A stretch of 59,641 bases of DNA, filler included, from Circinaria calcarea (taxonomy: Eukaryota): NCBI GenBank assembly GCA_051942165.1. It is 12 parts of 12 records of this genome, joined end to end, with 100 filler letters (N's around TTAATTAATTAA, not from the genome) between each part and the next. Parts side by side here need not be neighbours in the genome. Positions count along the whole stretch, not along the records: positions 29,908 to 34,781 come from JAVECS010002141.1; 11 more parts are not named here. One strand, 5' to 3'. The notes below the pieces were generated by a model. The model did no database searches. It was not told the DNA's origin and was given only the letters and a program-made list of their open reading frames with translations. Shown in pieces: positions 5,249-59,530 of the stretch. Position 1 is the stretch's first letter. Each line of letters starts with the position of its first letter. Made by a program: the position numbers and the translations under genes.

Positions 5249-6834
5249 TCATTCCACTTTAGCAAGATTGGTATCTTCCGTTCTGTAGTGATCTGAAACT
5301 ATCCGATACAAATATGAGGGAGCATGACCGCCCCTAAATCTCGAGTTAGCAATCACGACGACAATTCTACGCGAGTGGCTCGGGAATACTAACAAATTCG
5401 TAATGTAGAGATCTACGAGCTCTGCCGGTACATAGTCAAACAACGGATTTTCGACATCGACCTTATCCACCAGGTCTCCATCCTCATACCCAAACACTTT
5501 ACTCGCGTCCCCGTACTCTATCAAGGAGTCGAAATCGAAGGGATAGATCGGACTGAGCTTGTACACTCCTGTAACGACCACCACGGGCGTTCGATGCATC
5601 CTTGCAGCTTTTGCGATTGTCTTGGCTCCAGCTGCGGCGACAAGGCCCCCGTTCGCAAGCACAACATGTGTTCCAAGAATAACCTTATTCACACGGGACA
5701 TCAAGGCGAAGACTGCTGCATCTGGTATCAGGATGACGGTGATGCCAGCTGCAGTCAGGGGCTTCTGGAAAACTTCAGAGCTCATATCGTCTTCTGAATC
5801 CCCTTTTTGCGGACCGATGATAGTAGAGTGGGTGGCATGATGATTGTTAGGAAACGCTTCAGCGTGGATTACCGTGAACTTCCGCTTTGCGGCGGCTTTG
5901 AGGAGAAACTTTTGAACCGTGACGGAGGATGTATAGGTTAGAATGATCTCGTTAGAATGGATGTGATCAAGTGCATAGCCGGCAATTTGGTCGTCCACTT
6001 GATCCAACTCGTCAATAATTTCCTCAATGCCTTCAATTACTTCTGCTCGGAGGTCTTTAGCGGCGTTTAGATGGGCGAGGTTTAGAGCACTAAGGGAGGT
6101 TCTGCTGGCTGGAGACTGCGTACCCGGGGTGGTCGTAGGTGAATGTGTGGTCGATTTGGGATGTGAAAGAAGACTAAACATGGATGTCACCATGGGCGCC
6201 GTGTTATTGACAGCATAAGAGGTATGAGATGTAAGTAGTGGCGGTCTCCGAAAGTCCTCGTCTCCAGCAAGCGCAAAGACATCATCTGAGCTTCTGCTCA
6301 CCGTCGTCACATCCGTAGGTTCCAAGCCACCTTGTCGTAAGGGGCTAAAGGTTGAGATTGTGGATGACAAGCCCGGTCTTTGAGGGGGTTTGTCTCGGGG
6401 CGTATGAGGGCGACTTTCGGTACCCGTATCACTGAAGCCACTTGTCTCTCCGTCTCTATCCTCCTCTGCCTCATCCCGTATGACGCCTAGTATTCGACGA
6501 ACAATGTTCCCCACAGCGATTTCTCTTGGTTGGGCTGCTGTCAGCCTCTGCCCGACCCCCTGTACTCGCTCAATGAGTCGTGCAATATCTGTGACCCGGA
6601 ATGCCGCCACCACCCGGCGCATGAGATGTGCTGTCGCGATTGCACTTGATCTGGAGCCATGAATCTGACGGCGTTTGAGGAGACTGTTTTAATTGGTAAG
6701 GACTCCGGTTCATAGATTGTAAGGCTTCTTACATACGAGATGAGGTGCTCTACAGATGACTCGACCGGAGAGCTTCTGACATGCTTGAGGAAAGTGGTAA
6801 GACTAGGAGTCATTGTCGAAGTAGACTTCGACAT
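5249..6834 (-). CDS. GCD7: Translation initiation factor eIF2B beta subunit
   Basis: AQPREIAVGNIVRRILGVIR, DHIHSNEIILT, VFALMSRVNKVILGTHVVLANGGL, NPLFDYVPAELVDLYITN|GGHAPSYLYR. Introns at 6684-6736 and about 5334-5395. Confidence 0.95.
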
Positions 6835-7447: not shown

Positions 7448-9063
7448 ATGAACTCTCTCAATATCCTCTCTGCCCGCGTCATCGGCCAAACCCTCCCTCA
7501 AACACCTGCTAAGCCTACTAGATCGAGGTCTGTCAGTGAGATTAGTCCTAGCAAAGGAGTCACGGTATCTCAGCCTAGACGGAGCGCAAGCCAGCATGAG
7601 AATACAGGCCCTTTAGCAGCAGCCGAGAAGTTTGGGCAGACTGATAACAATAAGCGGGAAGATGACAACACCAGTGAAGCAGTGGATGAGAAGACGCCAT
7701 TGCTCGATGATCCAAAGACAGAACTGAGCCCAAAGCTGAAGAAAAGTCGGCTGCGCCTGGTAGCCAAGCGGCTTGTGGACGCCCTTACAGAATCTCTCCA
7801 ATGGGTTTTGTCGACATTAGTATCGCCGGGTGTATACGTGGTAACATGTTTCTACGACGAGGAAGGGCATATTTCTCCTTTGATGCCTATTCGTAAGATG
7901 CAGCATCGGTTACCGAAGCGGAATGGAAGCAGCTCAACGGCCCATGCTGTTGGTCTTTCGGGGTCCTCGGATCATTCGGAACGTTTATCAGGGCCAGATG
8001 CTAAGAAACAGACAAAACGCCAAAGAGCATCGGAGAGGCGCGCCGATAAGATCAGCGACTCTGCCTCTTCAGCAACGTCCGAATCAGATATTGATAGTCA
8101 AAAGAAAGAGAACAGTAGGAACCGATCCAAATTACAGCCATCAACTTCAGTGAACGAGGTTACTCCCGCTCGGAGATCAATACGTATCAAACTTAAGCAA
8201 GAAGATTCCAGCCGTTCAAAGAGGCAAAGAAGAGGGCAGGAAAACTCCACCAACACCACAGATACCGAGCAACCTCTTGTCACAGCCGCGAATCTCAAAT
8301 CACCAACATCTCCGGCAGCCTCTTTACGGATGACCAAATACCCCCACGCGCCTACTCCTCCACGTCCCCTCATCCCCCGACGCCAACCCTCGTACTCCGG
8401 CCGTACGTCACCTCGCTCCTCGGCTCTCGCCCAGAAAACCCTCGTCATCGACCTCGACGAAACCCTAATCCACAGCCTCGCCAAAGGCGGCCGTATGTCC
8501 AGCGGTCAAATGGTCGAGGTTAAACTGAATACCGCCGTCGGCTTCAACGGTACCACCCTCGGACCCCAACATCCAATTTTATACTACGTGCACAAGCGAC
8601 CCCACTGCGACGATTTCCTCCGATCCGTCAGCAAATGGTACAATCTGGTCGTGTTTACAGCTTCGGTACAGGAGTATGCGGATCCGGTCATCGACTGGTT
8701 GGAACAGGAGCGGAAATACTTTTCCGCGCGCTACTACAGACAGCATTGCACATTGCGGAATGGAGCATACATCAAGGACCTCAGCTCGGTGGAGCCGGAT
8801 TTGAGTAAAGTGATGATTCTCGATAACAGTCCCTTGAGCTACATTTTCCACGAAGGTACGTACCTCCCCGTCCCCTTGTCCTCAACAATCCAAACTAACA
8901 CACAATCCCAGACAACGCCATCCCCATTGAAGGCTGGATCAACGATCCCACCGATAACGACCTCTTACACCTCATTCCTTTACTGGAAGGCCTGCAGTAC
9001 GTGACGGATGTGAGGGCGCTGTTGGCATTGAGGAGGGGCGAGGCGGCAGATCCGGCACATTAA
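7448..9063 (+). CDS. NEM1: Nem1/Dullard NIF-domain (HAD) phosphatase
   Basis: MNSLNILSARVIG start, KTLVIDLDETLIHS catalytic motif, LVVFTASVQEYADPVIDWLE. Intron 8856-8911 joins to DNAIPIEGWINDPTDNDLLHLIPLLEGLQYVTDVRALLALR. Stop at 9061-9063. Confidence 0.93.
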
Positions 9064-14840: not shown

Positions 14841-14960
14841 ACACATTACGTCCGGGATCCNNNNNNNNNNNNNNNNNNNNNNNNNNNNNNNNNNNNNNNN
14901 NNNNTTAATTAATTAANNNNNNNNNNNNNNNNNNNNNNNNNNNNNNNNNNNNNNNNNNNN

Positions 14961-16589
14961 TCTGTTAGGAATACTATGTTGGAGGTTAAAGGACGTATCT
15001 TGCCTTGCCCTATCCCGATTTACAGATCAGGAACCGATAACAGAGGGCCAAATTCAGGATCATGGAACCTCAGAAACAAAGTACTCCTGCATCCACAAAC
15101 ATTCAAATCCTGGGGCGTACTGTATCTACCAGGTGATCGAGGGGTGGATGATCGGACACTACAGCAATTTCTTCGGGCTTTAGCCTCCTCCTGCTCGAAT
15201 CTCGGTCTAACTACTCCTGACGGTCCACCAGCGTTTCTTAAAGGAAATCCCCAAGGCAATATCAAGGAAGAAATAAGGAATCTCTACGCGAAAACTGGCA
15301 ATACTTTCGGCCAGAAGCCCCAGATTCTGTTTTTCTTGCTTCATCAAGGAGCGAGCCCTTCCATTTACAGAGCAATCAAAGCGGCGTGTGAGGTAGATAT
15401 TGGTAAGTGGAATTACGAGAGCGATCAACGGGTAGAGGGTATACTAAGAACAGATGTGCAGGCTGTCCTAGCCAAGTAATGCTTGTTGAAAAGGCCCTCA
15501 AGAGTAATGGGCAACTGCAATACTTGGGAAACATTGGCTTAAAAGTCAATCTCAAACTTGGGGGTTCAAATTCCAAGGTCAATCTTCCAACGTTCAAGCA
15601 TTCACGAGTCATGATACTCGGTGGTAAGACTCTTCCACTACTAACAGAATGGTTAAATAATCGTGTGCCATAGGTGACACCTCTCATCCATCTTCAGGCG
15701 AACTTCGCAAGATGCCGCCTCCACCATCTTACACCGCATTGGTAGCTAGTTACGATGAAGAATGCAGCAAGTACAGCGCCGTCTCCACGTCGCAAACTGC
15801 TACGGTAGAACTCATCGAGAACTTCAAACCTATGATGAAGGAGCTCTTGAAACGATGGCAACAAAAGAACCAAGGTCTGACACCAAACTCCATCATCTAT
15901 TGGAGAGATGGTATCTCGGAGTCTCAAATTCCGGCATTTATGGATTCAGAGATCAAGGCCCTTCGAGAGGTTTGTGAGGAATCACAGCAGAAGATTAAAA
16001 TCACCGTGGTTAACTGCATAAAGCGGTATGTTATCAGAGGCATTTCAAAGTTCAGCACAGTAAAGATATGAGAGTTTCTAACCTGGTTCTTCGCAGTCAT
16101 CACACCCGCTTTTTTCCTGGACAAGGCGAACGAGGGGACAAGCTAGGTAATGTACTACCAGGCACCATAGTGGAGGCGAGCCGAGAGCAGGACGTCTTTT
16201 TAGTCTCTCAGAGCGCACTCCAGGGAACGGTCAGGCCCTGTCATTACACTATCCTCCTTGACGAGAACAAACTCAGCCCAGACGACTTTCAGTCGGTGAC
16301 AAACGGCCTGTGTTTTAGTTATGGGAGGGCGACCCGATCGGTTTCAATGTAAGAATACGCTTCAACAGCTGAACTATATGTTTACCAGCTAATAAACTGA
16401 GTAGAGTTCCCCCCGTGTTCTATGCCGATCAAGTTTGTGAGAGGAGCAAGATGCACCTCACCACCGGTGGGCCTAATAACGATCAGACATTCCACAACGA
16501 TGTCCATAAGAATCTTATCTACACCATGGTATGTGATATACGGTCGTCAGAGGGACGTCTAGCTCACTTCAACATAGTACTGGCAATAA
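14961..16589 (+). CDS. Argonaute (MID-PIWI portion), 5'-truncated, multi-exon
   Basis: GSWNL, Y..IK..C..DIG|CPSQ, NIGLKVNLKLGG, MILGG|DTSHP, YWRDGISE, KR|HHTRFFP, GNVLPGT, QSALQGTVRPCHY, YGRATRSVS, PPVFYADQVCER, terminal TM|YWQ*. Five short GT-AG introns. Confidence 0.95.
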
Positions 16590-16969
16590 GATATCAGATC
16601 TGGCGTCGCTCCGTTTGCATCTTCTCTCGCTCACAACTCTACCTTCCATCGTACTTGCTCCTTCCCTTTCTGGACGCCGCCCAAAATTTCTATTTTACGT
16701 TACCTTACGACTTGAAAGGTCGTTTCGCGTCGCAACAGAGGCCGTTAAACCTTGCCGAGACCAAGATCGGTCTAGTCTCGGATGGGAGGAAACGGCGGAC
16801 GGGGTATTTTGATGTTGTACTCCGTACATGATACCTTCTTCTCCTGGCGGTGATATTACACCTTTGCGCCGGTCAGGATTGATTCATACCCAGGACGATC
16901 ATAAGTGTTGGAAATTGACCAGGTTTGTTAGGGAGAAGTCGATTTTGAGGGCTTCTACGTATTCCTCTG

Positions 16970-22444: not shown

Positions 22445-23562
22445 AGGGAAAGCAACTTCAACGGAGCCGATATATCAGGTTGGAGAGCTGACTATCAAAG
22501 GAGAAGGGCACGGAGCTATAAGGTATGGTGAAACGGGATAAAGGTGGGCCGTTAGGTGCTTATGACAGTTTTGCTATACGCGCCAGAAGCCGCTATACTC
22601 GGATATAGCTGGCAAGAGTTTCATGAAGGAACAACGATACCGTAAGAGAAAACGGATCAAGTACACGTCTATATAAGAAACCCCCCCCCTCGGCGCATGA
22701 TTGAACCTGCATGGAGGAGATAGTGGTAGGTCCCATGAGTACCTACGTTGTTATGCAGCAGCGGGTCGTATAGGAAAGCCCGTCTGCTGCGCCGTTACGC
22801 ATGCTCGCAGATTAAGGTACTCATACCTGGTCTGCAGCAGCACACCATACCACACAGAGGTGCTGTTCGAATCGAGGGTGTGCTGCAGCTGCTCGATCTT
22901 GCGCCTCAGATAGGCAAACCTCGAGGGGAACTTAAGCAATCTATTTTAACGGCGGACTAGGCAGTATCGGGAGATTGCAAACCCGTCCCGCGTGCGCCAA
23001 GACGAAAAGGCTTGATTGAACGTCACCGACCCGTGGCTCCCTCTTTTTCTCTGGCCCGAGATCCCGACAGACAAAGTCATCCGACCCGACCCGGGAAATG
23101 AACAGGCGGCCAGGTTCGCTTTTACCTGGTCAAATAGAGGCGCATGGAATTCTGTAAATCACACTTATCCTATGCCAAAAGACATTCGATGTGGGGGGAT
23201 GTCGGGAGATTCTATTAATACTTCAAACAGTCATACCTTGGATATGACATGCACGCTACAGCTACAGGTAGCGGATAAGAGGGGGAAAAGGCAAGTTAAG
23301 ACAAGGGCATTGTTATGGCGTCAGGGCCATACTAAGGGAAGACTAGCTCCGGAACGGAGGAACCCCTAGGCCGGTTGCTTATGGAGGTGAGCAGGGCGAG
23401 CAACGTACTATATAGGCAGGCCATTCCCGCTCTTTAGAATAGCATGCTTATAGACACACACGGAATAACAATAGGCCAATATTACATTCCGGTAATCGTG
23501 CATCACGGAGTGACTCTATCCCTTATACAAGTCTAGCCTATCCTAGTACCCTTATAGGCATA

Positions 23563-30637: not shown

Positions 30638-32151
30638 TCACCAGTGGCATATGCCCCCTTCACTATCATCCATTGCCCACGTTCCGGCCAGTCCTACGAT
30701 CTCCCCGTTGGCATGCTCGCCGACTTTATTGAGCGTTGCAACGTTGGCGCCTCCATCCGCGGGCCCGTTGCTGAGCAGTCTCCTCGCCCATGCATCGATA
30801 GCTGGCTCGCCTGTTTCGTCCCGGGCTTGCTTCAGGAAGGGAATCAATGCGGTCCCGCCGGTACCTCGAAGCTTTCTGTTGCCCGCTTTCCCGTCTTTGG
30901 ACACAGTCGCGATATTAAGGGGCAGAGGTGCGGACCGAGGTGAGAGGGATCGAGAGTGAGAACGTGACTCGCGCGATTTCACGATGATGTAGCGAGAGAC
31001 CATCTGAATATGCTTATCACGTAAAGCGCGAAGCATAGCTAGACAGGCATCATAGGCTATGCTTAATGATCGATTTGCCTTATGGGATTCGACATATTCA
31101 CGGATATTTGCAACGCTCGAAACGCGCTCAAGAAAACGGCGGTGGGGTCCAGGCATGTAAGAGCGCATGTCCTGAATGAAGTTGTGGCGTGAAGGGGGAG
31201 CTGTACCTTCCATTTCGCTCTCTGAACTGTCGTTTCGCTTCTCACCAGTAGGGCGATGCTCGACACCGAGAACAATGTCAAAAAACTGTATGAGGGAACT
31301 TTGTGCATTGCTCCCGCCTCCATACTGCCGGTATACTTGTTCTCCGCTACCATCATCGTAAATCACACCATTAGGAAGACCTGCCTCTGCCATGTTCTTA
31401 CTCCCAGCTAGAAACGGCCTTATGCGATGATAGAAGACATGCGGATCACAATGCTCGTACATCCGAACCAGTAGTGTGCCTAGTTCGTCGAGCCTTTCAG
31501 CAAATGTATGTAGATACTCCGTCACTGCCCTACTGTCTTGTCTTCGTGCCGCTCCAATGGCATTAAGCATAAGTGAGAGTGTTGCAGCACCACGGGCTTC
31601 AATGGCCACTGACACCAGGTAGAACCATGATTCATCTAGCGATCCGGTAAATGTTGTAAGTGTGGAGAGGTTTTCGAGAGAGTCGATAGGTTCATCGGAA
31701 AAGATGGGTTTAAAGTTCCAAAGACAGACCGCGGCATAAGTGGCTACTGGTGGTACTTCAAGGAAGTGACATATTTCTAGGAGAGGAATTGAAATTGATG
31801 GTGGAATTCTCTAAGGACCAGTTAGTGGAGTCAAGGCCTACTTGAACAATCAGACCAAACCTCTTCTGGTTTGTCTCCACCCCAGATGTATGCATGCGAA
31901 ATGAATGCCAACAGCATGTATGCCCTTCGCCACTCAGCCGGATGGTGTAAATTTGAGGTGGAAAGGATGGGTAGCCTGGTAACAACCTCTCGTAGCCTCC
32001 TACTCAATACAAGGGCTTGTAGATTTACCACCACTGCTTCCCATCTATTGTAGTATGGATCTGGGAGGCGCTCCAACGGTAGCTCCTTTGGAAGGAAGCC
32101 ATACTCTGGTGAAATGTCATAGTCGTCCAACGAAGGAATAGGCGGGATCAT
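30638..32151 (-). CDS. BNA2: Indoleamine 2,3-dioxygenase
   Basis: GFLP, EWRRAY..L.FISHAYIWG, LPPVATYA-like motif, DESWFYLVSVAIE, GGSNAQSSLIQFFD, MRSYMPGPHR, RDKHIQMVSRYI, GTGGT. One intron at about 31813-31861. Confidence 0.95.
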
Positions 32152-33236: not shown

Positions 33237-33660
33237 TCATACAATTTCACGAGCTAGGTCAAACGCAAATCCAAAACTATACGGCCCATTTTGACGCTCC
33301 GCATGCCCCATAATAAAGCACACTCCCGTTCTTCTGGAGCCACGAAGCCACTACCAGCACAGTCCATTCGCATTGAACATGCCGTTCTGTCCAGCGTCGG
33401 CAACTTGACAGATGGTAGGGACGATACCCCAACCTTGCGTGGGAGGCGGCACGACCTCGAAGCTCTTGGGATTCCACGGACAGCAGTACGGCACCTCGCC
33501 GAAGTTGGTCGAGTAGATGCCCATCATATTAAACCAGTTGGGGGGATTGGCAAAGAGTTAGTCAAGGTATACAGGGACCGCACCCGGGCTTTTGGTGCTG
33601 CTGGTGGTGAGGGAGGCGGGAAGGAAAGGGAGGGAGGCTGAAGAGGAGCAGGACTGTCTA
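33237..33660 (-). pseudogene. Small Cys-containing protein pseudogene with two nonsense codons
   Basis: Frame AVPVYLD*LFANPPNWFNMMGIYSTNFGEVPYCCPW...ICQVAD..NGLCW*WLRG...EIV* has coding-like C/G-ending codons. Stops at 33558-33560 (TAA) and 33351-33353 (TAG). Confidence 0.5.
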
Positions 33661-34173
33661 GAAGAAGTCTCAGTCCGGCGGTACAGAGGTACCACCTTAA
33701 TTGAGAAAGGACAAATAACGAACGTCCCATCTATGCAATACGGTAGGTTAGGAAGGAGCGTAGTCTAAAAATGCGTAAGATGCAGCTGCCTTAAGAAAGA
33801 TGTCACCAGAAAGTATCAAGTGCTTGAAGACGAAGGATAAGTGAAAAGGATTGAAGCCGATCATAAGCAAAACTTGCCGAGTTAGGTTTGTAGGTTTGGG
33901 AGACCAGGGAAGCTTTTCACCCTTTCCACCGTCCAGGATTGTAAACATCTTCCAGTTGTAACCCACTGGATTATATGGGACTCGAATGCTGGTTATTAGG
34001 ATCTTGGTCGATTGCTAGGTGGTTATCTATAGATATCTCAGCGTCTTCCGGTGGATTGGATGTAGGTTTGCGCTAAATCAGCTAGGAGGACGAGGAGAAA
34101 AGAAGCCTGGGGAGAGGCTTTTTGTGAATTAATAGTACTAAATATGTAATAAAATTTTAAATACAGACGTTGA

Positions 34174-34298
34174 GGACCCATGGCGCAATGGTAGCGCGTC
34201 TGATTCCAGACCAGAAGGTAGAATTACTTACTATTGAAACATTTAAGAAATTTGACTGACTTTCGTTAAGGTTGTCCGTTCGATCCGGGCTGGGTTCA
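34174..34298 (+). tRNA. tRNA-Trp(CCA) with a 53-nt insert (34218-34270) in the variable loop
   Basis: Acceptor stem GGACCCA/TGGGTTC plus discriminator A. D stem GCGC/GCGC. Anticodon arm TCTGA-TTCCAGA-CCAGA. Variable loop AG|GTT. T arm GTCCG-TTCGATC-CGGGC. Intact A and B boxes, with T-runs just downstream. Confidence 0.9.
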
Positions 34299-34882
34299 GT
34301 TTGAAGCTTTTGGATTTTTGCAAGTTTGCGACATGGTGTATAAATCTACATACACACCTTTTAAAAAATCTTTTTTCATATGTTAACTATTTTATGTTTC
34401 TATAAGCTTGCTATCTTTTTGGGTGGATTTGCTACCTATTCCAGGACAAAGCTTTGGTTAGTCTGCGTGAGGCATCCGTGCATAGTGCCCATTATGAAGA
34501 AAAAATACTTCAGCATAGGTTACGAAAACGAGCTTATACTAGGCCGGCGATACATTTAGCACGGTTAGTAACAATGGAATCGATAAATGGCTAATATCAG
34601 TTAAGGATTGTGATGATTTGTCTTGGATATCCTAGTCGCAACCTTGATCCCACTGCCCATCACCAAAGCCCAGCCAGACCCCACCTCTTCAAGAACTCCT
34701 TCCCTCCCATCTTCACCCTCTCATCCTAGAAATCCCACATCTCTTCCTTCACATCTCGTACCCTCACCCACCCCTCGGTACNNNNNNNNNNNNNNNNNNN
34801 NNNNNNNNNNNNNNNNNNNNNNNNNTTAATTAATTAANNNNNNNNNNNNNNNNNNNNNNNNNNNNNNNNNNNNNNNNNNNNG

Positions 34883-35065
34883 GTTGGAGATGGGGAGGAC
34901 GAGGACGAGGACGAGGACGGGTACGGGGAGTGGGAAGACGTGAAGGACGAGGACTGGGACGGGGCGAAGGAAGGGAAGGACCAGGAGGGTGACGAGAAAG
35001 AGAGAGAGGAAAAGCAGGCGCAGGAAGAAAGCGACGATGAGTGGCCGACGGATTTTCTCGAGTGA
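34883..35065 (+). CDS. Acidic C-terminal tail of an unidentified gene, 5'-truncated
   Basis: Frame VGDGEDEDEDEDGYGEWEDVKDED...DDEWPTDFLE* from the contig start. Confidence 0.5.
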   Translation, partial: VGDGEDEDEDEDGYGEWEDVKDEDWDGAKEGKDQEGDEKEREEKQAQEESDDEWPTDFLE

Positions 35066-35388
35066 ATCTTGATAAGTAAAAAACGGCTGTTGCATCGAAT
35101 GCCGGAAGCAATACCTGAACCGCTAAGTCGAATCCCACTACACAAAAGGGTTAATTCAACATATATCCTTCCACATTAAGTGGTATAAAGTAATGCGATA
35201 AGCAGCGCGAGAGCAAAGATATGAACGGCTTTAATTATTGGGTAAACGTACCATACATTTTGCAGTGCTATGCACACTAGGCCTCCCCGGAAATTTCCCC
35301 CTACTTAGCATAGCGTGCACGGTTCTTTCCGCCAGAGCAACAGCTTAAGGGATAGTTTTTTTTGACCGCCGCCGCACATATCCACTTC

Positions 35389-35793
35389 TTATTCTTCTCT
35401 CCCATGTTCTTGTTCTTCTTCGTCGTCCACCATCTCCACCTCTGTAGTCACGAGCTTTTCTGACCCGCCGCCAATAGACTTTAATATCTCCTCAAGATCG
35501 ACTGGCTTTTCCACTCTTCTCACGTCATTCGCCACATGGTTCCAAAAATAGTATCGTTCCTCGCTCTTAAAGTAATATATCAGATTGTTAGGGTGGGCCA
35601 AAATGGACGTGATGGGCCCTAAGCCATAGTCTTCTCGCGCCAGGCAGTCGTGGACAGCTTTCAGTTCCGAGGGGTTATCAGACCATCCAGCGGGGATCGA
35701 GTCGCTGGGAAGTTTGTGGCGTGGAAAGTCAGGCTCCTGGAATTTCGTGAGTTGCGTGATTAATATTGACCGGTCAGTAGAGTAGGAGGCCAT
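35389..35793 (-). CDS. Hypothetical protein, 134 aa
   Basis: ATG-initiated ORF with globular composition and an acidic tail. No family recognised. Confidence 0.6.
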   Translation of the reverse strand: MASYSTDRSILITQLTKFQEPDFPRHKLPSDSIPAGWSDNPSELKAVHDCLAREDYGLGPITSILAHPNNLIYYFKSEERYYFWNHVANDVRRVEKPVDLEEILKSIGGGSEKLVTTEVEMVDDEEEQEHGREE

Positions 35794-37199
35794 ACCCTTT
35801 GACTCCGGGAGATTGTATCAGGAGAATTGGGTGTCCTAGATTCACTTGATAAACGGGTCAGTTGCAGCTTCTGGCATGATCAACGATTAGTTTCGGGTGG
35901 ATGCAAAAGAAAATAGAGACATGAGCGTACCGCCGGGACGTAAGAATGGTGGAGTGACACGGAGCCGAGTGGTTGACGGGTGAAAAGGACACGGGATTGT
36001 CCAGTGGCCTTAAGTGGTTGGCTATGGAACGGCAATGTCCTTAAAACACGACACCAGCTCATTGCTTTTCATAGTGTGCAAAGAAGTCTAGGTGCGCAGA
36101 AAAGGTCAGCGTGGACTCGGATGGATAAGCTGTATTTTAGCTAGCTTTTATAAAACACGACCAAAGGTTATCGGTTTTGGAATTCGTTCTATCCCAAATT
36201 GAGACTAGCTTGTTGAAAAGGAACATGCTGCTCCTAAAAGAGACTAATCTCAGAGAGGTAAGCTACGGAGTAGCTAATCCAGTTTCGGAATAAATGCTCC
36301 CCGCACGATTGGCCTGATATATTGTTCATAGCTCGGCGCTAGTAGATCAATGCCTAATTCAGTTAAACTCCGGAAGAGCTTTGTTATTTAATTCTAGTAT
36401 CTTGTATGCATAACAGCTGAACCAATCAGAATAGGATGTGGAGTTAAAATAGCTGAAAATTTAAATAGTCTGAGTGAGGATTCTAGTGACTTTAGCGCCG
36501 AGCTATGAACAATTTCCCTTGCGACCACAGTACAGTAGCGTGTTATTTAATACCCTACAACGGAGTACACCGTGTATTTACCAGTCCCTTCCCCTTTCGC
36601 GCCCTGCCTTTCTCTTCGGCCTTATCGTTACAATCCCTTATCTCTCCTACTACCTTTACCAATATCACCCCAACAATCCTCACAGATATTTGGGTGTTTT
36701 TGGCCATCCATTACCAAGCACCTCCATCTTTGTAAGCGGAAATGCGGCCACCAGTGTGTTGGCCCCTGCAGTACCATGGCACCATGGTTCCCGGATCGTA
36801 GTGACTGCCGGAGCCGAACCAGGGGCTAAGCTACAGTAGCTCGAAAGATCTTACAGTTGTGCCTGAAGGGGGTTATCTTGAAGATTTGCCAAGGATGTCA
36901 AGATTGCGGGTCGGGTTTTGATTTTGGGAAAGAAGATTTTAAGACAAGTGACTGATAGACACAAATTCAGGGTTCGGTCGAGTCGGTTGGCGGTAAAGTT
37001 GTACAGCCGCCCTTGAATGGCCTGCCTGATAAAGATTTCAAAGCAGCAACTTCACGGTTTATTCGGCGAGCGACATTGATGAAAGGTATATAGTTCAGAC
37101 ATAGTCTCTCTGTTATCCTATGCATCCGAATACCAGATTCCCATTATTCTCTCGAGCAACAGCAACTATTACTGATCATCCTCCCCCAATTAACCCACC

Positions 37200-38195: not shown

Positions 38196-39599
38196 ATTGG
38201 TTCCTGAACAGTTGTACCGGAAGTGTTGAGTCAATTGTCTGTGCATCAGTGTTCGATTGATCTCAATCATATAGGAGAACTTATCTATAATAGGTTATTA
38301 ACAACATGGACTGAATCATGACATAACAGTTGCAACTTTTTTTGTATACACTAGTGAAGCTCCCTTAATGTATGCTTGTATAGAATATCCCAAGTCCTTG
38401 GCGCGGTTCCTTTTGAGGGAGCTGCACAACTACGTCGGAACATCTCATAGGTTAAGTTTTATCGAAGTTCGATCATAACCGCGTCCCTACCACCACACTG
38501 AGATCCTATGAAAAATGTTACAGTTAATGTCGGGGAAGAATTGAAGTGAAAGCTCGCCCTGTATTTCGTGGCCTCTTTGGTGGCCTCCTAGGTGACAGTA
38601 GTAGGTGGCAATAGAAGGTATCTTTGCGCGCCGTCTTTAAGGTATTGGCATTCGTCGCCAGTACCAGCTGCCTCATTTAGTCACTTGCAAGACCTCCAAT
38701 TTAACCGTCGCCGATATCTTCTTGAATTTGATCGAAGCCTTCTTAATGACAAATCTGTCTAACTCTGCATGTGCGTCTGGACTGAGCTTAATATAAATGT
38801 CGTCCAGTAGCTTCTGACCACCACGTTCCGCAAATGGCAAGGTAGTTATCGCGTTCCTCTGGCCCAGATTCGCCAATGACCACCGCGAATGAACGCTGAA
38901 ACCCCTTAATACGCATCATTCAAGGTCAAGATATAATGGTAACCTTGTTCATAAATAGCAAGGCTGGTCATTTCAGCAAGGACAGAGTTGAAATGAGTCT
39001 CTGTAATGAACAAAGGGCGAACAATAGGACGACACCGTGTTAGGGGAGTAACTAGAACGTGTATACAAGAAGAACATATTGTATCAGTGATAAGTGCCAT
39101 ATATACTGAATATTGGAGGTTCGAACTAAATCTCATGGTAGCCAGAATCTAAATTGGTGTCACCGGCAAGTTAAGTGTCAGAGAAGGGGAGTCTCCTAGA
39201 CCGAGACTCTTATAGATTGACCAACAAGCAATGAAAAAAGATATGTAAGCATTGTCCAAAGACTCGCCTGAGATATTCATCTACCATAAGGAATCGGACT
39301 CTGATTCAGGGTTTTCGAAATATTGCCCTGAGTGACAGAGTAAGAGCCTGAGCACACTTGATTGTCAGAAGGTAAGATGGGCGATATAGGCAATGTAGAA
39401 TATATGTAACTCAGTGATAGAGGAGCCTTTTCACCAAGCATTAGTTGATAAAGACCTTTCTTCTATGTTCGTGAGCGTACTCCCGAGTGCTCAACGCTCC
39501 GTATATAGAGGGCTTCCACTAAACTACTCGCGGACATTACCAGAGATCCCTAAGCTATGCCGCATCCGGTTAAATGCCGCAGTATGTCCCCCCCCCCAA

Positions 39600-41329: not shown

Positions 41330-42787
41330 ATCAAGGATGATTGTGCATCCGCCAGACCCTCATGTCGAGTCATCGTTGTCGGGTGTGGGCTGGGGGATCT
41401 TCTGGCTGCAATAGGCCTCCGGGCATCCGGGCACGAGGTGACCATTATGGAGAAAATGGCAGAGCTGCAAGAGGTCGGTAAGCTGGGAGAATTTTGTACC
41501 TGGAATAATTTACTAGGCTGAACCTCAAGGCATCTCTGTAGATTGGAGCTGGCATCCAGATTACACCCAACGCAACGAACGTTCTCAAAGCATGGGACCT
41601 TCTGGACGCTGTGAAGTCATGTGCCGTGCAACCTGATGCTGCAATCTTGCGCTCTTATCGAGATGGCAAGGTTCTGTCGACCCAGCCTCTAGGCGCTTTT
41701 ATGGAAGAAACAAATGCAGCACCTTACTTGGTCATTCATCGAGTCGACTTGCATAAAATCTTACTGGCTAAAGCTGAGAGTCTTGGGATTGTGATACGAC
41801 TAAACTCTTTTATCTCAAATATAAGTCTAGTCAAGCCGTCTCTCGAGATTTTTAATGGCGAGATATACGAGTGTGACTTGATCCTGGGTGCTGATGGCGA
41901 AAAGTCAATGTGCCGGGAGGCACTGCTTGGGCATGCTGATCCGTTGCACGATACGGGAGACGAAGTCTTTCGGTTCACGATCCCCAGAGCTGAAGTGGCC
42001 CAGCATCAAGATCTAGCTGAATTGGTAGAATTCCCAAATATCAATTTCTGGGTAGGACCAGATGGCAATGTGATAACATATTTGGTCAAAAAAGATAATC
42101 TGCTCAATTTCGCCCTCACCCGAGCTCGTGGCAGCAATGGCGAGGTTCACTATAAACCCCAGAAGGCAGAAGTGAGTGAACTGAGTGCCGCGATTAGCCA
42201 ATGGGATCCAAGATTCAAGACACTGTTAAGCATTTCTCAGGCGTTAAGCAAGTGGACGCTGTTTGAAGCCAATGAAGCACCCTACTGGACCCATTGTGAT
42301 GGCCACTTTGCTCTCGTAGGGGACGCAGCTCATGCAATGCGTCCGCATCTGTAAGTCCACAATGACCCGTGAACTTCAAGAGAAGCTAAGAGGGATCCTC
42401 AGTGCACAAGGCGCCGCACAAGCGTTCGAAGACTGCGCTGTTCTCGCGGTTCTCTTCTCCAAAATCCAATCTAAATCGCAAATCCCCGATATCTTGTCCA
42501 TTTACGAACGTATCCGCAAGCCCCGAGCGAGAGAGGTTCGGATTCGCGCGCGGGAAATGCGGACGGTTTTTGGGATGAGGGATGGTCCACTGCAGCAGGA
42601 GCGAGACCGGCAACTGTTGGAACATGCACCGTTTGAGGGTTATCCCAACCCGTTGGCGGACCCCGTGCTTCAGAAATGGCTCTATGGGTATCGTGCCATC
42701 GAGGAAGCCGAGAGAGCTTGGGAGGTTTACTTGAAAGGAGAGTGGCCTGGAACGAGAGGGATGTGGAGACAAGGTAGCGGTGCATGA
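41330..42787 (+). CDS. FAD-dependent monooxygenase (salicylate-hydroxylase-like), possibly defective
   Basis: RVIVVGCGLGD, E|IGAGIQITPNA, HRVDLH, DLILGADG, LVGDAAHAMRPH|AQGAAQAFED. Two introns. No in-frame ATG found before the first motif. Confidence 0.85.
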
Positions 42788-46103: not shown

Positions 46104-47482
46104 TCAACTATCAACGCTGCGAATTTCTGTTGAAACGCCTTCCATGGGCTTGCTCCCCTTCTCACTGGTTACTACACCTTCTTTGATGCTATTTCCCTCA
46201 CTATCCGAGGATGTCATCCCCTCGGTGTTTGCCGGATCCGCTTGTTTCGCTTTCATAAGTGGCCAATGACCGTTCTTCTCGTTGTACCGCATTTCCAAGA
46301 ACGCCAGGATGACGGTAACCCAATAAAGGTTGTAGGAGAGGACTGAACCGTAAGTAGCAGAGTTTTGCCATCCAAATAAGGCGTTGAAAATCCCCCATCC
46401 GCCACCTCCATTTATTAGAGGACTGCAGCACTTGACGAAACATCAGTGAGTTACCGGAAAGGTAAGCCGAGCGAGAGACTAACATTCACGTGCCAAACGC
46501 TCTGGCGAATATCATACGAGCCTGCTCCTGCGCCCGTCTCCGCTGCGTCACCACCAATCAGAGTATTCCACTATGGGTTATTAGCTTTGAATCTACTTCT
46601 AACAAGGTGAGGAACAGTACCTTGTGGGCCTCCAAAAACCATACGGCCTTGGAGAAAAGGCCGGCTGCCACAAGGTAGAGAAATGAAGTCGAGACAATCA
46701 GAAATATCTGGATCGAAGCAAAATTACCACCCCTAATTTCTTTAGTTACATCGGATCAGATTGGATACATGAACCGAGCTCACCGGTAAATAAAGTAACC
46801 GATCAAGCACCCGAGGCCAAGACCAGTAATCACCGGAATAGGGAATGATGTTGCCGGTAGACCTAAGCTGATACCACTGATGAAGACTACCGCTTCAAGG
46901 CCTTCCCGAAGGACAGTGACGAATGGAAGGATGAACATGGCATATTTCTCACACCATGTTTTGAATCTGCTGCCAGCAGTACCCTTCTTGGTACTGTCTT
47001 TGGCTTCAAGAGCTTTTGCAAGCTTCACGCGCCATTTGTCCTGCAGTTTGGAGACTCGCAGGAGAGCGGCGCCCATCAAGGTGATGATAACAGAGGAGAG
47101 CAGTCCGAAGGCGCCTTCCCAGATATTCTCTGTGGCCCCAAATATATCTTTACCGAGTCCATAAAAGGCCCCGATCATACCGGCTCCAATGGCAACGCAG
47201 ACGGCGAGGCCCAGCGCTGTGCCCAACCATACCTGGAGATTGTTAGCCTGGGATTGCATGCGTAGTCCCATCTGTGCATTTACCTGGCGCCTGAGACGTT
47301 TTAAAGTGGACGCATCCTGGTCTGGTCCGAGGGTCTGCTTCAAGAAAGCCAGCAGGATAGAGACCACGATACTGGTCTCCAATGTTTCTCGCAGACAGAG
47401 GAAGAATACTAGGGAACACTTAATGGACCGTCAAAGTTATAGCACCATCGGACTTACCTGGCACCGCGAAGACGTTCACCAT
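46104..47482 (-). CDS. FTR1: High-affinity iron permease FTR1/FtrA
   Basis: [22 protein letters not shown] and [11 protein letters not shown] (two REXXE motifs), [24 protein letters not shown]. Several short introns. Confidence 0.95.
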
Positions 47483-48595: not shown

Positions 48596-48801
48596 CCTCT
48601 CGAAGGCGACACACATCAACATCTAGGTTACCATCGCGCACTCCAGGTGTTGGCGGACTATCTCTTGCTGTTGCGTAGACAACATTCATATCATTCGCAC
48701 ACGGCCGCCTCGTACGTTGCTGCCTCCGGGGACCTTCAGCATATGGTGCCAACGAAATCTCTTGCTTTCCCTACTTTTACCCCTGATTCCATTCCATCAC
48801 C

Positions 48802-49699
48802 ATGTTCCAGTTTTCTTGCTTGTCATGGTCACTGATTCCTCTGCTATACGTTGTGGGCTTGGTGCATACTGCCACAGTCACGTATGATTTCAACATCACC
48901 TGGGTTACAGCCAACCCAGACGGTGCTTTCCCTCGTCCTACGATAGGTATCAACGGACAATGGCCTCTGCCACAGATCACGGCCAGCGTTGGGGACCGGG
49001 TGGTAGTGAACGTACTGAATCAGCTTGGCAATCAGAGTACGAGCTTGCATTTTCACGGCCTCTACCAGAATGGGTCTACCCATATGGACGGCTCGGCTGG
49101 CGCTTCCCATTGTAGTATTCCTGCAGGTGCCTCGTTCAAGTATGATTTCAAGGTAGGTAATGGTTGTTATATCATGGACGACTTGAGCTTATCGAAATTA
49201 GATTGACCAACCCGGGACTTATTGGTATCATTCACACGATAATGGGCAATACCCCGATGGACTACGTGGAGCTTTGATTGTGAACGACCCAGACTCTCCT
49301 TACAAAGGACTATACGATGAGGAGATTGTCTTGACCCTGTCTGACTGGTATCATGAGCAAATGGCAACTTTGATTCCTGCCTTTATCAGCGTGACAAATC
49401 CGACAGGAGCGGAGCCGGTACCAGCGGCCGCACTTTTCAATGACACTCAAGACCTCACAGTCCGCGTTGGGCCGGGTAAAACTTACATGATCCGCATGAT
49501 CAATATGGCTGCCTTTGCAGCACAGTATGTCTGGTTCGAGGAGCATACTATGCGCATTATCGAGGTCGACGGCATATACACTGAGCCAGCTGAAGCGGAG
49601 ATGTTATATCTAACGGCAGCTCAACGTTACAGTGTCTTGATTACAACGAAGAATGACACATCATCAAACTTTGCCTTCGTTGGCAGCATGGATCAGGTA
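48802..49699 (+). CDS. FET3: Multicopper ferroxidase FET3/FetC, 3'-truncated
   Basis: Signal peptide, [46 protein letters not shown]. Divergent from FTR1. Confidence 0.95.
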
Positions 49700-49799
49700 N
49701 NNNNNNNNNNNNNNNNNNNNNNNNNNNNNNNNNNNNNNNNNNNTTAATTAATTAANNNNNNNNNNNNNNNNNNNNNNNNNNNNNNNNNNNNNNNNNNNN

Positions 49800-52920: not shown

Positions 52921-53928
52921 CTAGTTCCTGGGCCTTTTGGACCTGGGCTCGTTTCTTTGCGTAAAGGAAGTATTCGGCGTCGTCGGCTGCGAGCCAACGA
53001 TAGCGTCATCATCTTCCTCGGGCGCGGACTCGGACTCGGACTCGGCGTTCGACTGCTGGGAGAGATGAGTGTCCAATTCGAGGGAGAGCTGGAGGCCGGA
53101 GTCGTCGGGAAACTGCAGCTCGGAGCCGGAGACGTCAAAGTTAACGCCGGCGGGGATCTGGTCGATGGCGGAGCAGATGCGCCGGAAGTGCTGCGGCATC
53201 CAGACGTCGTAGATATTCCTGGTGAACTTGTATGCCGTCCACTTCTCTCTGCCGTCCAATTCGGTGAAGCAAAATTCACGGACGGGGTGACGGTAGAAGG
53301 TCGTTTTGTCCTGGTCGATTATCGGATAATGGCCATAAATCCTCACGGTTGCATGGTCGTGCGAGATTGAAAAGCCAAGGATCTCTCGATGAACATCTTT
53401 TTCGCGCTTGGCAAGTCTGAAGAGTTCGACGACGGCCCTGACGGCGATAGTCATGCTGTGGGCATTCTGTCGGTCTGCAACTTCGAGCCCTGCGGCACCG
53501 CACTTGACCTCGCACGCGAGAAAGGGGAAATACATGTAAAAGGTGCCCATGAAAAATGAAGTATCCCAGAGGGAACCGACAAAAGGTTGAAGCTTTTCAA
53601 GTTGATCGTCTGTAAAGGTAGATCGCCTGAATCCCACAGAATAGTCGGGTTGTGGGCGAGTTTTGGTCACAGGAATAGAATTATTCCAACCCTCGTTGGC
53701 GCTCTCAATCAAGTGCTCGAGATGTGTGGCGCCGTATATGGCGAGGTTTTGGGCCGGAGACCCGAACCAAGTTGGAGGACGTTGAGTGCCTCTTGAGACT
53801 TTCTTCGAGTTTCCCTCAACTTCCATGTGTTTGTACAACCGAATGAGTCTCGACCGGACGTGTACCCTGCGACTCCTCCGAGCCACGATACTCCTCTGGG
53901 ACTTGCTCCTCCACAAGGGCTTTTTCAT
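52921..53928 (-). CDS. DUF7924-type fungal protein (PD-(D/E)xK-like motif)
   Basis: LIESANEGWN..IP....PQPDYSVGF, YFPFLACEVKCG, ADRQNAHSM..AVRAVVELF, FSISHDH..VRIYGHY, FYRHP. Confidence 0.8.
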   Translation of the reverse strand: MKKPLWRSKSQRSIVARRSRRVHVRSRLIRLYKHMEVEGNSKKVSRGTQRPPTWFGSPAQNLAIYGATHLEHLIESANEGWNNSIPVTKTRPQPDYSVGFRRSTFTDDQLEKLQPFVGSLWDTSFFMGTFYMYFPFLACEVKCGAAGLEVADRQNAHSMTIAVRAVVELFRLAKREKDVHREILGFSISHDHATVRIYGHYPIIDQDKTTFYRHPVREFCFTELDGREKWTAYKFTRNIYDVWMPQHFRRICSAIDQIPAGVNFDVSGSELQFPDDSGLQLSLELDTHLSQQSNAESESESAPEEDDDAIVGSQPTTPNTSFTQRNEPRSKRPRN

Positions 53929-55068
53929 CCGTAACCGAAGAGAGAGAAATGGCGACGCGGTAGTTATTGATGAGGGAAAGGGCTAGTGGGATGTGCATGG
54001 CTCTGTTGTCGAAGGTTATCATCCTGTTGGCAAGATATCCGGACATTACCGGATAGACAAGAAAACTGACGCAGTAAAGAACGCAGAGCATTTTACCACC
54101 TCCCTCCTGTTGCATTTCCTCTCATTCCTTCCCCCTAGTGCCTAGTGCCTAATGCCTAGTGCCGAGGGACCCAAAATAGTACCGAGCTCTTTCCCTCTCT
54201 GCTTCCCTCTCTCCTTCCCTCGCCCCCAAACTTGCTCGGAAGTCAAAAAATAACCACACAAAAAAGAGAAAAAAGGAAGCCCCTTTTGGACCGCAAGGTA
54301 GGGTGAAGCCTTACTTTGCCCCGGCTCATTTTGGGCTAAACTGAAACGAGAACATAAAAAACCCCAGGAATCCCCCTTTCCTTTTTCCTTTTTCCTTTTT
54401 CTTTTTTCTTTTTTTCTCTTATTCCTAACCCCCCCCCCCCGGGAAAGCGGGGAGGAAGGGGGTTTGATGAGTTGGCGCGGAGGCCTAGATAGAACCGATC
54501 TAAAATAGAATTCCCAATCTCAATCCCCGTTCTAGGTTCGGATCCGGATTTTAACTGGGGGCACACACCATCGTCTTCGCACCCCCCCCGGTCTCACAAA
54601 CTCATTTCATGCTTCATATCTCACACCTCGTTCTCGTTCTCGTTCTTATATTTTCCCCTGATCAGGCCCCCNNNNNNNNNNNNNNNNNNNNNNNNNNNNN
54701 NNNNNNNNNNNNNNNTTAATTAATTAANNNNNNNNNNNNNNNNNNNNNNNNNNNNNNNNNNNNNNNNNNNNTGCTGTCTTCGCCGCCTGTTCATGCTGCT
54801 ACTATGGTGGAGCCAAGACGACTAGTGACTGGGCGCGCATATGGAATGGGTAGGGCAGGCATGGAGGACTCCTACACACTTACATACATACACACTCTTT
54901 CGACAGATAGCAGAGCAGCATAGCAGTCAGAAACGCAATACTGAAACTGGTCCTGATATTTCCTTTATATATACACTGTACTGTAGCAGCCAGTTCGTGC
55001 TATATACCCTTTGATTCTTCACTATTCAGGCTCCATTACCCATTCTCGACAGCGTTTTTGCCTATGCC

Positions 55069-59129: not shown

Positions 59130-59530
59130 TAATATCGGAATGATAGCGGTAGGTAATTCATAATTATAATTATTTTCACCACATCTTTTATCCCTGCCCA
59201 TGGTCGCAATCGCTGTTACTTGTGTTACTTACAATCGCTGCCACTTATCTGTTACCCACTATCGCTGTTATTATCGTTATCGCTGCCTTTGCCACTGTAA
59301 TTGTTATTGCATCATTCTTAGCGACAGTGAAAGACAGCGATAAACGGCAGCCATAATAAGTAATAGCGATAGCGGCAGCGACGATAAAACCCTTTTAATA
59401 TTTATAGAGTCCTTCTAATATTAGAGTCTTTCATATATCGTGATCTCGGTTTTAATTTTATGAGTGACTCTATAATTTTAAAGGTCTCTAAGTAATATGA
59501 ATTAATTGTTAATAGATTTATCTGCTGCTA
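59130..59530. repeat. AT-rich relic with ATCGCTG direct and inverted repeats
   Basis: ATCGCTG occurs four times (59209-59286), followed by CAGCGAT/TAGCGAT copies and TpA-rich sequence. Confidence 0.45.

Follow-up and report, generated by a model that had tools for sequence, protein, structure and literature searches.

The locus at positions 34174-34298 of the Circinaria calcarea DNA analysed here, a 59.6-kb stretch referred to below as the window, raises the question of whether a tRNA can be matured by the spliceosome. It is a tRNA-Trp(CCA) gene whose variable loop is interrupted by 53 nt. In textbook accounts nuclear splicing in eukaryotes is divided in two: the spliceosome acts on transcripts of Pol II, whereas tRNAs are cut and joined at position 37/38 by a dedicated endonuclease and ligase. 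Exceptions to this division are known, and spliceosomal introns are found in snRNA genes and in rDNA, as described in passages of PMC5855946. A search of the literature outside subscription journals and bioRxiv supplements found no tRNA gene described as carrying a spliceosomal intron. From its features we read the locus, with about an even chance of being right, as a nuclear tRNA-Trp(CCA) gene with a variable loop split by a spliceosomal-type GT-AG intron. The host is placed by its sequences among the lichen-forming Lecanoromycetes; the best named matches of its eIF2B-beta are from Xylographa (80-83% identity) and Trapelia (77%).

Architecture of the tRNA-Trp locus

The Rfam tRNA model RF00005 (gathering score 29 bits) covers 34174-34298 on the plus strand along its whole length, model positions 1-71 of 71, with a score of 42.9 bits, and the alignment has a single insertion, located after the anticodon arm and before the T arm. 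With 34218-34270 taken out, ARAGORN draws a normal cloverleaf for a 72-nt tRNA-Trp(CCA), in agreement with the preliminary description, which had proposed that removal of these 53 nt leaves a complete tRNA and had called for tRNA models to be run on both the unspliced and the spliced forms. The only flaws that ARAGORN leaves after removal of the insert are the A31·C39 mismatch, which the same description had noted and which is present in the Rfam alignment and in the sequence, and a G2·U71 wobble; apart from A31·C39, the tRNA-Trp stems and conserved loop bases are all intact. There is no normal tRNA intron at 37/38, the insert lying at 45/46. For comparison, the uninterrupted Trp genes of seven fetched loci score 62.5-67.6 bits with RF00005. 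The features of the locus are as follows, a slash within a motif marking the candidate cut.

34130-34165, plus strand: AT-rich region with TATA-like stretches, 9-44 nt upstream of the tRNA start (direct reading)
34174-34217, plus strand: 5' exon, tRNA-Trp positions 1-45, comprising the acceptor 5' strand, D arm, anticodon arm and first two variable-loop bases (Rfam alignment, ARAGORN on the spliced sequence)
34181-34191, plus strand: element TGGCGCAATGG, resembling the A box of internal Pol III promoters (direct reading)
34203-34211, plus strand: anticodon loop with the non-standard closing pair A31·C39 (A31 at 34203, C39 at 34211; marked 'v' in the Rfam alignment and unpaired in the ARAGORN drawing)
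34206-34208, plus strand: anticodon CCA, Trp (Rfam, ARAGORN, direct reading)
34215-34219, plus strand: AAGGT direct repeat, copy 1, across the 5' junction (direct reading)
34218-34270, plus strand: insert of 53 nt, a candidate intron of spliceosomal type, separating tRNA positions 45 and 46 (insertion in the Rfam alignment)
34218-34223, plus strand: candidate 5' splice site AAG/GTAGAA, weak, with A at +5 (PWM score)
34256-34260, plus strand: candidate branch point CTGAC, in which the A at 34259 would be the branch site, 11 nt from where the insert ends (motif position)
34268-34272, plus strand: AAGGT direct repeat, copy 2, across the 3' junction (direct reading)
34269-34270, plus strand: candidate 3' splice site AG, in the context AAG/GT (direct reading)
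34271-34298, plus strand: 3' exon, comprising the remaining variable loop, T arm, acceptor 3' strand and discriminator A73 (Rfam, ARAGORN)
34278-34286, plus strand: B-box-like element in the T arm, GTTCGATCC (direct reading)
34308-34319, plus strand: candidate Pol III terminator, T4 at 34308-34311 and T5 at 34315-34319, 10-21 nt past the tRNA end (direct reading)

In its default mode, with the intron option off, ARAGORN reports no tRNA gene at the unspliced locus or anywhere in the window, and a search of the window to E<=10 found no further tRNA-like matches. As ARAGORN without the intron option is blind to this tRNA-Trp, some fungal tRNA gene counts could, if such tRNAs are indeed spliced, be too low.

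The elements TGGCGCAATGG and GTTCGATCC, which from the consensus sequences we take to be an A box and a B box, together with the downstream T runs and the lack of a terminator inside the unit, suggest a Pol III type 2 layout. The 60 nt upstream of the tRNA have a GC content of 23%, and the AT-rich region there is a putative Pol III promoter element. The insert has no run of four or more T (the longest is 3), as the preliminary description had stated; the weight that it placed on this as a sign of compatibility with Pol III falls away, because 49% of insert shuffles equally lack TTTT. The gene sits in a stretch of ~870 nt between ORFs without a Pfam match, which leaves room for unannotated transcripts, and the insert could be a real spliceosomal intron of an overlapping Pol II transcript (a non-coding RNA or UTR), with the tRNA either freed by RNase P/RNase Z or a mere passenger. 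Pol II transcripts are the usual substrates of the spliceosome, as passages of PMC8527467 put it. The locus nonetheless has the look of an independent Pol III gene, with its own A and B boxes, an AT-rich upstream region and an adjoining T-run terminator, and we consider an overlapping Pol II transcript decidedly unlikely.

The insert runs from GTAGAA to TTAAG, with CTGAC at 34256-34260; GT comes directly after the insert, and AAGGT is found at both junctions. All of this had been claimed and is borne out by reading the sequence. The repeat allows six cut registers with an identical product, and by itself it supplies both a GT and an AG, so that a plain insertion with target duplication would also show GT-AG ends. 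This leads to the main rival of a spliceosomal-type intron, a dead or dying tRNA-Trp copy in which 48 nt of AT-rich filler and a 5-nt AAGGT target duplication are never, or no longer, spliced; its intron-like appearance would be in part built in by AGGT and in part chance, and intact Trp-CCA genes elsewhere would supply the cell. We hold this to be a serious possibility, if not one that we would back. Beyond the automatic GT...AG, it is favoured by the GC content of the insert, which at 26% is below every one of 11 host introns (36-52%) and near that of the AT-rich flanks (23-35%), and by the A31·C39 mismatch, which fits decay. Odd-site insertions in one of many synonymous eukaryotic tRNA genes are, moreover, usually taken for pseudogenes, according to parts of PMC4090602. 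Against a dead copy stands the preservation of the stems, conserved loop bases, promoter boxes and terminator, with the exception of A31·C39, where more damage is expected in a decayed gene. AG/GT occurs a single time in the 72-nt mature tRNA, precisely at the insert. No other copy of the insert is present in the window, where no further match exceeds 10 nt, so nothing there speaks in favour of an introner-like family.

Candidate splice signals and host mRNA introns

The host reference set consists of 11 mRNA introns of the window, each verified by Pfam-split domains or by homologues. Calling introns from ORF logic alone or from a motif pattern yielded many false candidates and was dropped, as was a codon-usage score that gave no separation of coding from non-coding DNA; mapping of Fet3 homologues added no further host intron. 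The tRNA-Trp locus is bracketed in the window by an IDO-family gene at 30.6-32.2 kb and a short-chain dehydrogenase gene at 37.2-38.2 kb. The host introns are 49-71 nt long with a median of 53 nt, 10 of the 11 falling within 49-56 nt, and the length of the insert equals the median. Two of them had been named in the preliminary description as matching the insert in length, and both are real introns of 53 nt.

2536-2588, minus strand: VPS39 mRNA intron, 53 nt (verified host intron)
6684-6736, minus strand: eIF2B-beta mRNA intron, 53 nt (verified host intron)

The donor had been called weak for its GAA at +4 to +6, and rightly so: it has A at +5, where G is found in all 11 verified host introns, so that at this position it is weaker than every host donor, a point in favour of a dead copy. 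Its PWM score of 3.09 bits is within the range of the real donors (2.2-8.7 bits, leave-one-out, n=11), three of which score lower, and 16.6% of the 6169 GT sites in the window score at least as high. One real donor, AAG/GTAGGT of the copper oxidase gene, has the same first seven letters.

As for the candidate branch point, a CTRAC 8-25 nt from the 3' end turns up in 1.8% of shuffled inserts (200,000 shuffles) and in 1.7% (111 of 6372) of the GT..AG stretches 45-60 nt long that the window contains. The host introns have branch-like motifs 10-16 nt from their 3' ends, with a strict CTRAC within 8-25 nt in 3 of 11, and an AAG 3' splice site is used by one of them (VPS39 4167-4221). Were the gene a dead copy, the median-intron length, the CTGAC 11 nt from the end and the sole AG/GT would have to be a joint coincidence. 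The insert resembles a U2-type spliceosomal intron in its GT-AG ends (in one of the six registers), branch-point placement and length, and departs from one in having no extended donor with +5 G.

Folding, other intron classes and related loci

Folded alone, the insert reaches -3.0 kcal/mol and the centroid fold leaves it open; the unspliced molecule has a z-score of -1.36, and in the predicted ensemble the tRNA stems are formed (unpaired probability 0.01-0.2) with the insert about half unpaired. In the predicted precursor the insert loops out and all four tRNA stems are kept, which would suit an insert that is never removed and persists as a giant variable arm. Class II tRNAs have variable arms of ~13-21 nt, which 53 nt far exceeds, and positions 45-48 of a tRNA make tertiary contacts that would break; with the near absence of structure in the insert, we find this reading scarcely credible.

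Group I introns are defined by a 5' exon ending in U, an intron ending in G and a conserved P1-P9 core. Only a cut after 34219 leaves the exon with a terminal T, and the intron then ends in T as well; moreover, 53 nt folding at -3.0 kcal/mol are too small for such a core; a group I intron was rejected on these grounds. An endonuclease-type tRNA intron defined by a bulge-helix-bulge (BHB) was rejected for its position at 45/46 instead of 37/38 and for the absence of the BHB motif: a central helix of 4 bp is formed in none of the six equivalent registers, the best giving 3 of 4 pairs and using a strand of the anticodon stem. An ectopic tRNA-type intron, cut by SEN through a BHB and joined by tRNA ligase as in archaea, algal nucleomorphs and Cyanidioschyzon merolae, is accordingly judged very improbable. 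The lack of a stable fold also stands against it, as does the view, set out in parts of PMC4090602, that the fungal endonuclease finds 37/38 by its distance from the body of the tRNA. In its favour, 45/46 is a known non-canonical archaeal site, a variable-loop intron of Thermofilum pendens is on record in the reference list of PMC3978253, and eukaryotic endonucleases are able to cut BHB substrates, ectopic introns being present in nucleomorph and C. merolae tRNA genes (passages of PMC4090602).

Scans of sequence collections for interrupted relatives used exact patterns and covered few fungi. In metagenomes, the Trp 5' half followed by a T-loop 48-78 nt on was found at four loci, all of which are uninterrupted Trp genes with a chance T-loop match downstream. 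In a collection of prokaryotic genomes the pattern of the interrupted Trp gene had no matches, and the Trp 5' half had three, all uninterrupted and on contigs resembling eukaryotic contamination. The lack of an interrupted relative in these fungus-poor collections is a further point for a dead copy.

Several lines converge on the reading of a spliceosomal-type intron: the complete tRNA without the insert, its host-median length, the GT-AG ends at the sole AG/GT site, the placement of CTGAC, a donor score within the real range, the missing BHB and weak fold, the intact A and B boxes with T4/T5, and a lichen-forming host, with precedents in the rDNA of lichen mycobionts and in the U6 gene of Schizosaccharomyces pombe. 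Counted against it are the +5 A, the low GC content, A31·C39, the AAGGT repeat, the want of an interrupted Trp gene in exact-pattern, fungus-poor scans and of a second insert copy in the window. Of the case originally made for splicing by the spliceosome, the arguments from length, GT-AG ends, proto-splice context and branch placement have held in silico, and the one from T runs has not. The absence of a BHB or stable fold adds support, and the donor, weak at +5, does not.

Proposed course and known systems

If the insert is a spliceosomal-type intron, Pol III would transcribe the whole unit from its intact A and B boxes through to the T4/T5 run. The four tRNA stems are predicted to form, and the AT-rich insert to loop from the variable region as a loose 53-nt arm. 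The spliceosome would take AAG/GUAGAA as donor and AAG/GU as acceptor, with branching at the A of CUGAC, releasing the insert as a lariat and restoring the variable loop AGGUU, and end processing would give a 72-nt tRNA with G1-C72 and A73. Entry of the intron was most likely at the only AG/GT proto-splice site of the tRNA and may have been by reverse splicing or by repair of a staggered break, an event in keeping with the AAGGT direct repeat. With so weak a donor, splicing may be inefficient.

The consequences of this reading are all conditional on RNA evidence. If it is true, a Pol III transcript of ~130 nt that is highly structured and has no cap can serve as a spliceosome substrate, and the locus is a natural system for spliceosome recruitment without Pol II; it bears on the origin of new introns from a proto-splice site and a short direct repeat, and tRNA-gene finders in eukaryote mode miss or mis-score such genes. 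A bolder proposal, which we think improbable, is that lichen fungi route an essential, single-isoacceptor tRNA-Trp through the spliceosome, that mRNA-type introns have colonised rDNA, snRNA and tRNA genes (thus genes of all three polymerases) at proto-splice sites, and that a deliberately weak donor ties tRNA-Trp supply to spare spliceosome capacity as a brake on translation. Ectopic rDNA introns have been proposed to make lichens grow more slowly and withstand stress better, and a weak-donor brake would be in line with this.

Four known systems bear comparison with the tRNA-Trp insert. Introner-like or transposon-borne introns, reportedly the subject of van der Burgt et al. in 2012 and Huff et al. 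in 2016, are said to have splice sites made through target-site duplication, and intron turnover in Zymoseptoria is said to be the subject of one study. As in those elements, a short flanking direct repeat contributes to each of the two splice sites here; introner-like families have many near-identical copies, whereas the tRNA-Trp insert has a single copy in the window. The tRNA introns of archaea, nucleomorphs and C. merolae likewise lie outside 37/38, and 45/46 is a listed archaeal site in parts of PMC4090602 and PMC3978253. They are defined by a BHB and cut by the tRNA endonuclease, in contrast to the insert, with its spliceosomal signals and no BHB in any register.

In lichen-forming and other ascomycetes the rDNA harbours ectopic spliceosomal introns, for which passages of PMC8527467 and PMC5855946 cite Bhattacharya et al. 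2000, and a 57-bp rDNA intron of Cladonia grayi tested in yeast is removed by the spliceosome from Pol I transcripts (PMC8527467, in part). The lichen-forming hosts are Lecanoromycetes, the introns are ~50-60 nt and the genes lie outside Pol II, as with the tRNA-Trp insert. The rDNA introns occupy a Pol I gene and are absent from the mature rRNA; the insert is a candidate intron in a Pol III gene.

The sole U6 gene of Schizosaccharomyces pombe, a Pol III gene, contains an intron that the spliceosome removes (passages of PMC5855946), and mRNA-type introns in fungal U6 genes are attributed there to Tani and Ohshima 1989, 1991 and Canzler et al. 2016. Splicing is demonstrated for S. pombe U6, whereas the tRNA-Trp insert is a candidate intron, and the U6 introns are described, in the parts of the source cited, with canonical sites, unlike the non-consensus donor of tRNA-Trp. 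U6 is also a component of the spliceosome and a tRNA is not, so a gain of the tRNA-Trp insert by reverse splicing cannot be put down to proximity to the catalytic centre. The U6 introns of S. pombe and other fungi and the tRNA-Trp insert are alike in being short, of GT-AG type and equipped with a branch-point motif, and in lying within the gene of a small, highly structured Pol III RNA with internal promoters, and in both the exons and the intron are each ~30-50 nt in length.

A split tRNA-Trp gene

The Rfam tRNA model RF00005 matches 34174-34298 (+) over its full length (model positions 1-71 of 71) and scores 42.9 bits, the curated threshold being 29 bits. This is the sole match in the window exceeding any Rfam family threshold, and the search to E 10 returned no further tRNA-like match there. 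In the RF00005 alignment a single long insertion separates the anticodon arm from the T arm. ARAGORN in default mode reports no tRNA, either for the window or for the stretch before splicing. When 34218-34270 (+, 53 nt, the insert) is taken out by script, it draws a 72-nt tRNA-Trp with anticodon CCA, in which the acceptor stem has seven pairs (one of them G·U), the D and T arms are normal and the single flaw is A31 facing C39. The complete cloverleaf claimed in the preliminary description is confirmed. Three other Rfam matches lie far under their cut-offs and are probably due to chance.

Promoter-like elements of the tRNA-Trp gene and sub-threshold Rfam matches
34181-34191, +, A-box-like element, intact
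34278-34286, +, B-box-like element, intact
23243-23345, +, TLS-PK1, 22.8 bits (cut-off 80)
39172-39201, +, Ocean-VII, 22.4 bits (cut-off 53.5)
59252-59363, -, MIR7526, 25.7 bits (cut-off 110)

The 60 nt 5' of the gene are 23% GC with TATA-like stretches, and its 3' end is followed at 10-21 nt by T4 and T5 runs. The insert extends the A-B box distance by 53 nt, which intron-bearing tRNA genes can tolerate; canonical tRNA introns of up to 133 nt are on record (PMC4090602). These elements give the unit the look of an independent Pol III gene, and this makes it unlikely that the insert belongs as an intron to some overlapping Pol II transcript. The gene sits within ~870 nt lacking a Pfam-matching ORF (33640-34170 and 34300-34780), with short ORFs around it at 33258-33638 (+) and at 33751-34014, 34882-35175 and 35392-35817 (-). 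About 480 nt downstream is a pair of 44-N runs (34782-34825 and 34838-34881); the window holds 22 such runs (968 N in total), paired at ~4.97 kb spacing from 4889-4932 and 4945-4988 to a last one at 54728-54771, and they have the appearance of masked sequence, not of gaps in the assembly.

The insert begins GTAGAA, ends TTAAG, and contains CTGAC at 34256-34260, where the candidate branch A lies 11 nt before the 3' end; T runs within the insert reach three at most. AAGGT occurs at both junctions (34215-34219 and 34268-34272), and therefore six cut registers yield one identical product, one of the six having GT...AG ends. These features, together with the A31-C39 mismatch and the sliding boundaries, are present as first described. 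The lack of TTTT, earlier offered in support of Pol III compatibility, proves uninformative, as 49% of insert shuffles also lack it. No second copy of the insert was found in the window.

Comparison with host mRNA introns

An mRNA intron was accepted if it interrupted a Pfam domain whose profile coordinates continued across it, or if its removal restored a conserved motif or homologue alignment, giving eleven host introns; ORF logic, motif patterns and codon-usage scores each yielded an excess of false candidates. Both 53-nt introns cited earlier as comparators, in VPS39 and eIF2B-beta, are among the eleven.

Verified mRNA introns of the window
2536-2588, -, VPS39
4167-4221, -, VPS39
6684-6736, -, eIF2B-beta
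8856-8911, +, NIF phosphatase
15624-15673, +, Argonaute
16026-16096, +, Argonaute
16349-16404, +, Argonaute
31811-31860, -, IDO
42351-42402, +, FAD monooxygenase
46733-46783, -, FTR1
49153-49201, +, copper oxidase

The host introns are 49-71 nt long (median 53; ten of eleven within 49-56 nt) and 36-52% GC, and most have a branch-like motif 10-16 nt before the 3' end. Strict CTRAC 8-25 nt from the 3' end is found in three of the eleven and an AAG 3' end in one. The donors are GTACGT, GTAAGA (twice), GTATGT (twice), GTGAGC, GTTTGG, GTGAGT, GTAAGT (twice) and GTAGGT, all with G at +5. GTTTGG, an unusual donor that keeps the +5 G, belongs to the IDO intron, which splits an indoleamine 2,3-dioxygenase domain (exon profile positions 2-95 and 93-411), and non-consensus donors are thus in use in this genome.

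The FTR1 iron permease gene (46561-47430, -) and a Fet3-like multicopper oxidase gene (48793-49696, +) are divergently arranged; FTR1 and Fet3 together form the classical pair for high-affinity iron uptake. Alignments of five full-length Fet3 homologues to the oxidase gene stop at about residue 281-283, and their C-terminal halves have no match on the plus strand past the N run at 49700-49799, so the gene is truncated, diverged or partly masked. The Argonaute gene (14961-16828, +) has ArgoMid and Piwi domains, at least three short introns, and a start beyond the N run at 14861-14960. Elsewhere, a 353-aa ORF (52924-53982, -) matches DUF7924, a domain of unknown function (E = 3.6e-100).

The insert equals the host median length, and its CTGAC lies at a typical host distance from the 3' end; CTRAC falls at such a position in 1.8% of 200,000 insert shuffles and in 111 of 6372 (1.7%) GT..AG segments of 45-60 nt across the window. 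The mature 72-nt tRNA has a single AG|GT, the classical proto-splice context, and the insert sits precisely there. On its exon side (AAG|) the donor is good, and its first seven letters recur in the copper-oxidase donor AAG|GTAGGT. Scored with a weight matrix from the eleven host donors it reaches 3.09 bits, within the leave-one-out range of real donors (2.2-8.7 bits; three of eleven score lower), although 16.6% of 6169 window GT sites score at least as high and the score by itself therefore says little.

An unspliced, decaying tRNA-Trp copy is a real possibility, though we lean away from it. A dead copy would be expected to show the non-consensus donor, whose +5 A is seen in none of the eleven host donors, the GC content of 26%, below every host intron and near that of the AT-rich flanks (23-35%), the A31·C39 mismatch and the direct repeat at the junctions; a DNA piece inserted with a 5-nt target duplication would generate GT...AG ends by itself, given the AAGGT repeat. 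The median length, the use of the only proto-splice site, the placement of CTGAC and the lack of an alternative excision signal are, taken together, a poor match to random insertion. We give roughly even chances to the insert being a spliceosomal-type intron that does undergo splicing, perhaps at low efficiency.

Other routes of removal

The tRNA-endonuclease route requires position 37/38 or a bulge-helix-bulge motif. The insert is not at 37/38, and when all six equivalent registers were checked for a central helix of 4 bp linking the cut sites, none gave four of four pairs (the best gave three of four and would take up the anticodon-stem strand); an endonuclease-type intron is thus highly improbable. 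A group I intron is ruled out by the end bases and size of the insert.

Folded alone the insert reaches -3.0 kcal/mol, and the centroid fold of the precursor leaves it open. All four tRNA stems are present in the ensemble (unpaired probability 0.01-0.2), in which the insert is about half unpaired, and the whole precursor has no excess stability over shuffles (z = -1.36). We give almost no credence to the insert staying in the tRNA as a giant variable arm, a most unlikely fate for 53 unstructured nucleotides.

Relatives and known ectopic introns

The best named relatives of the largest eIF2B-beta exon (5252-6688, -) are lichen-forming Lecanoromycetes: Xylographa species (Baeomycetales, Ostropomycetidae; 80-83% identity) and Trapelia (77%), then Toensbergia, Umbilicaria and many others, with 94% identity to an ENA protein. 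The Fet3-like gene agrees with this, and the window is accordingly assigned to a lichen mycobiont of the Lecanoromycetes. Exact-pattern scans for an interrupted Trp gene returned four loci in a metagenome collection, all uninterrupted with a chance downstream match, and none in a prokaryote-genome collection, where a second exact-pattern scan gave three Trp genes, all uninterrupted, on contigs that resemble contaminants. With so few fungi in these collections and a search limited to exact patterns, the blank scans carry little weight. Among the contigs fetched, L005 (labelled a Desulfobacteraceae MAG) carries several tRNAs of eukaryotic type together with a U6 snRNA (117.9 bits), while L006 carries a 5S rRNA and tRNAs; these and L007 are filed under bacterial MAGs with eukaryotic genes aboard. 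The metagenome contig L003 has a metazoan-type SRP RNA, three 5S genes and two Trp tRNA genes. All four are suggestive of contamination by eukaryotic DNA or of clustered small-RNA genes.

In the consulted part of PMC4090602, a review of tRNA introns, the non-canonical eukaryotic examples are limited to nucleomorphs and Cyanidioschyzon merolae, each linked to bulge-helix-bulge-like motifs, and odd insertions elsewhere in tRNA genes are usually classed as pseudogenes. The preliminary description knew of no spliceosomal intron in a tRNA gene, and the literature we searched likewise yielded none. At the tRNA-Trp locus a spliceosomal intron remains a well-formed hypothesis. Spliceosomal introns are catalogued in U6, U2, U5, U1 snRNA and rRNA genes, tRNA genes being absent from the catalogue as excerpted from PMC5855946, which also describes the intron of the single S. 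pombe U6 gene as excised by the spliceosome. Lichen mycobionts have 'ectopic' spliceosomal introns in rDNA, and yeast excises a 57-bp Cladonia grayi example from Pol I transcripts (PMC8527467). Those introns reside in Pol I-transcribed rDNA, whereas the candidate here interrupts a tRNA gene; if the reading is true, this would, compared with the published record, give a known type of ectopic intron a new host.
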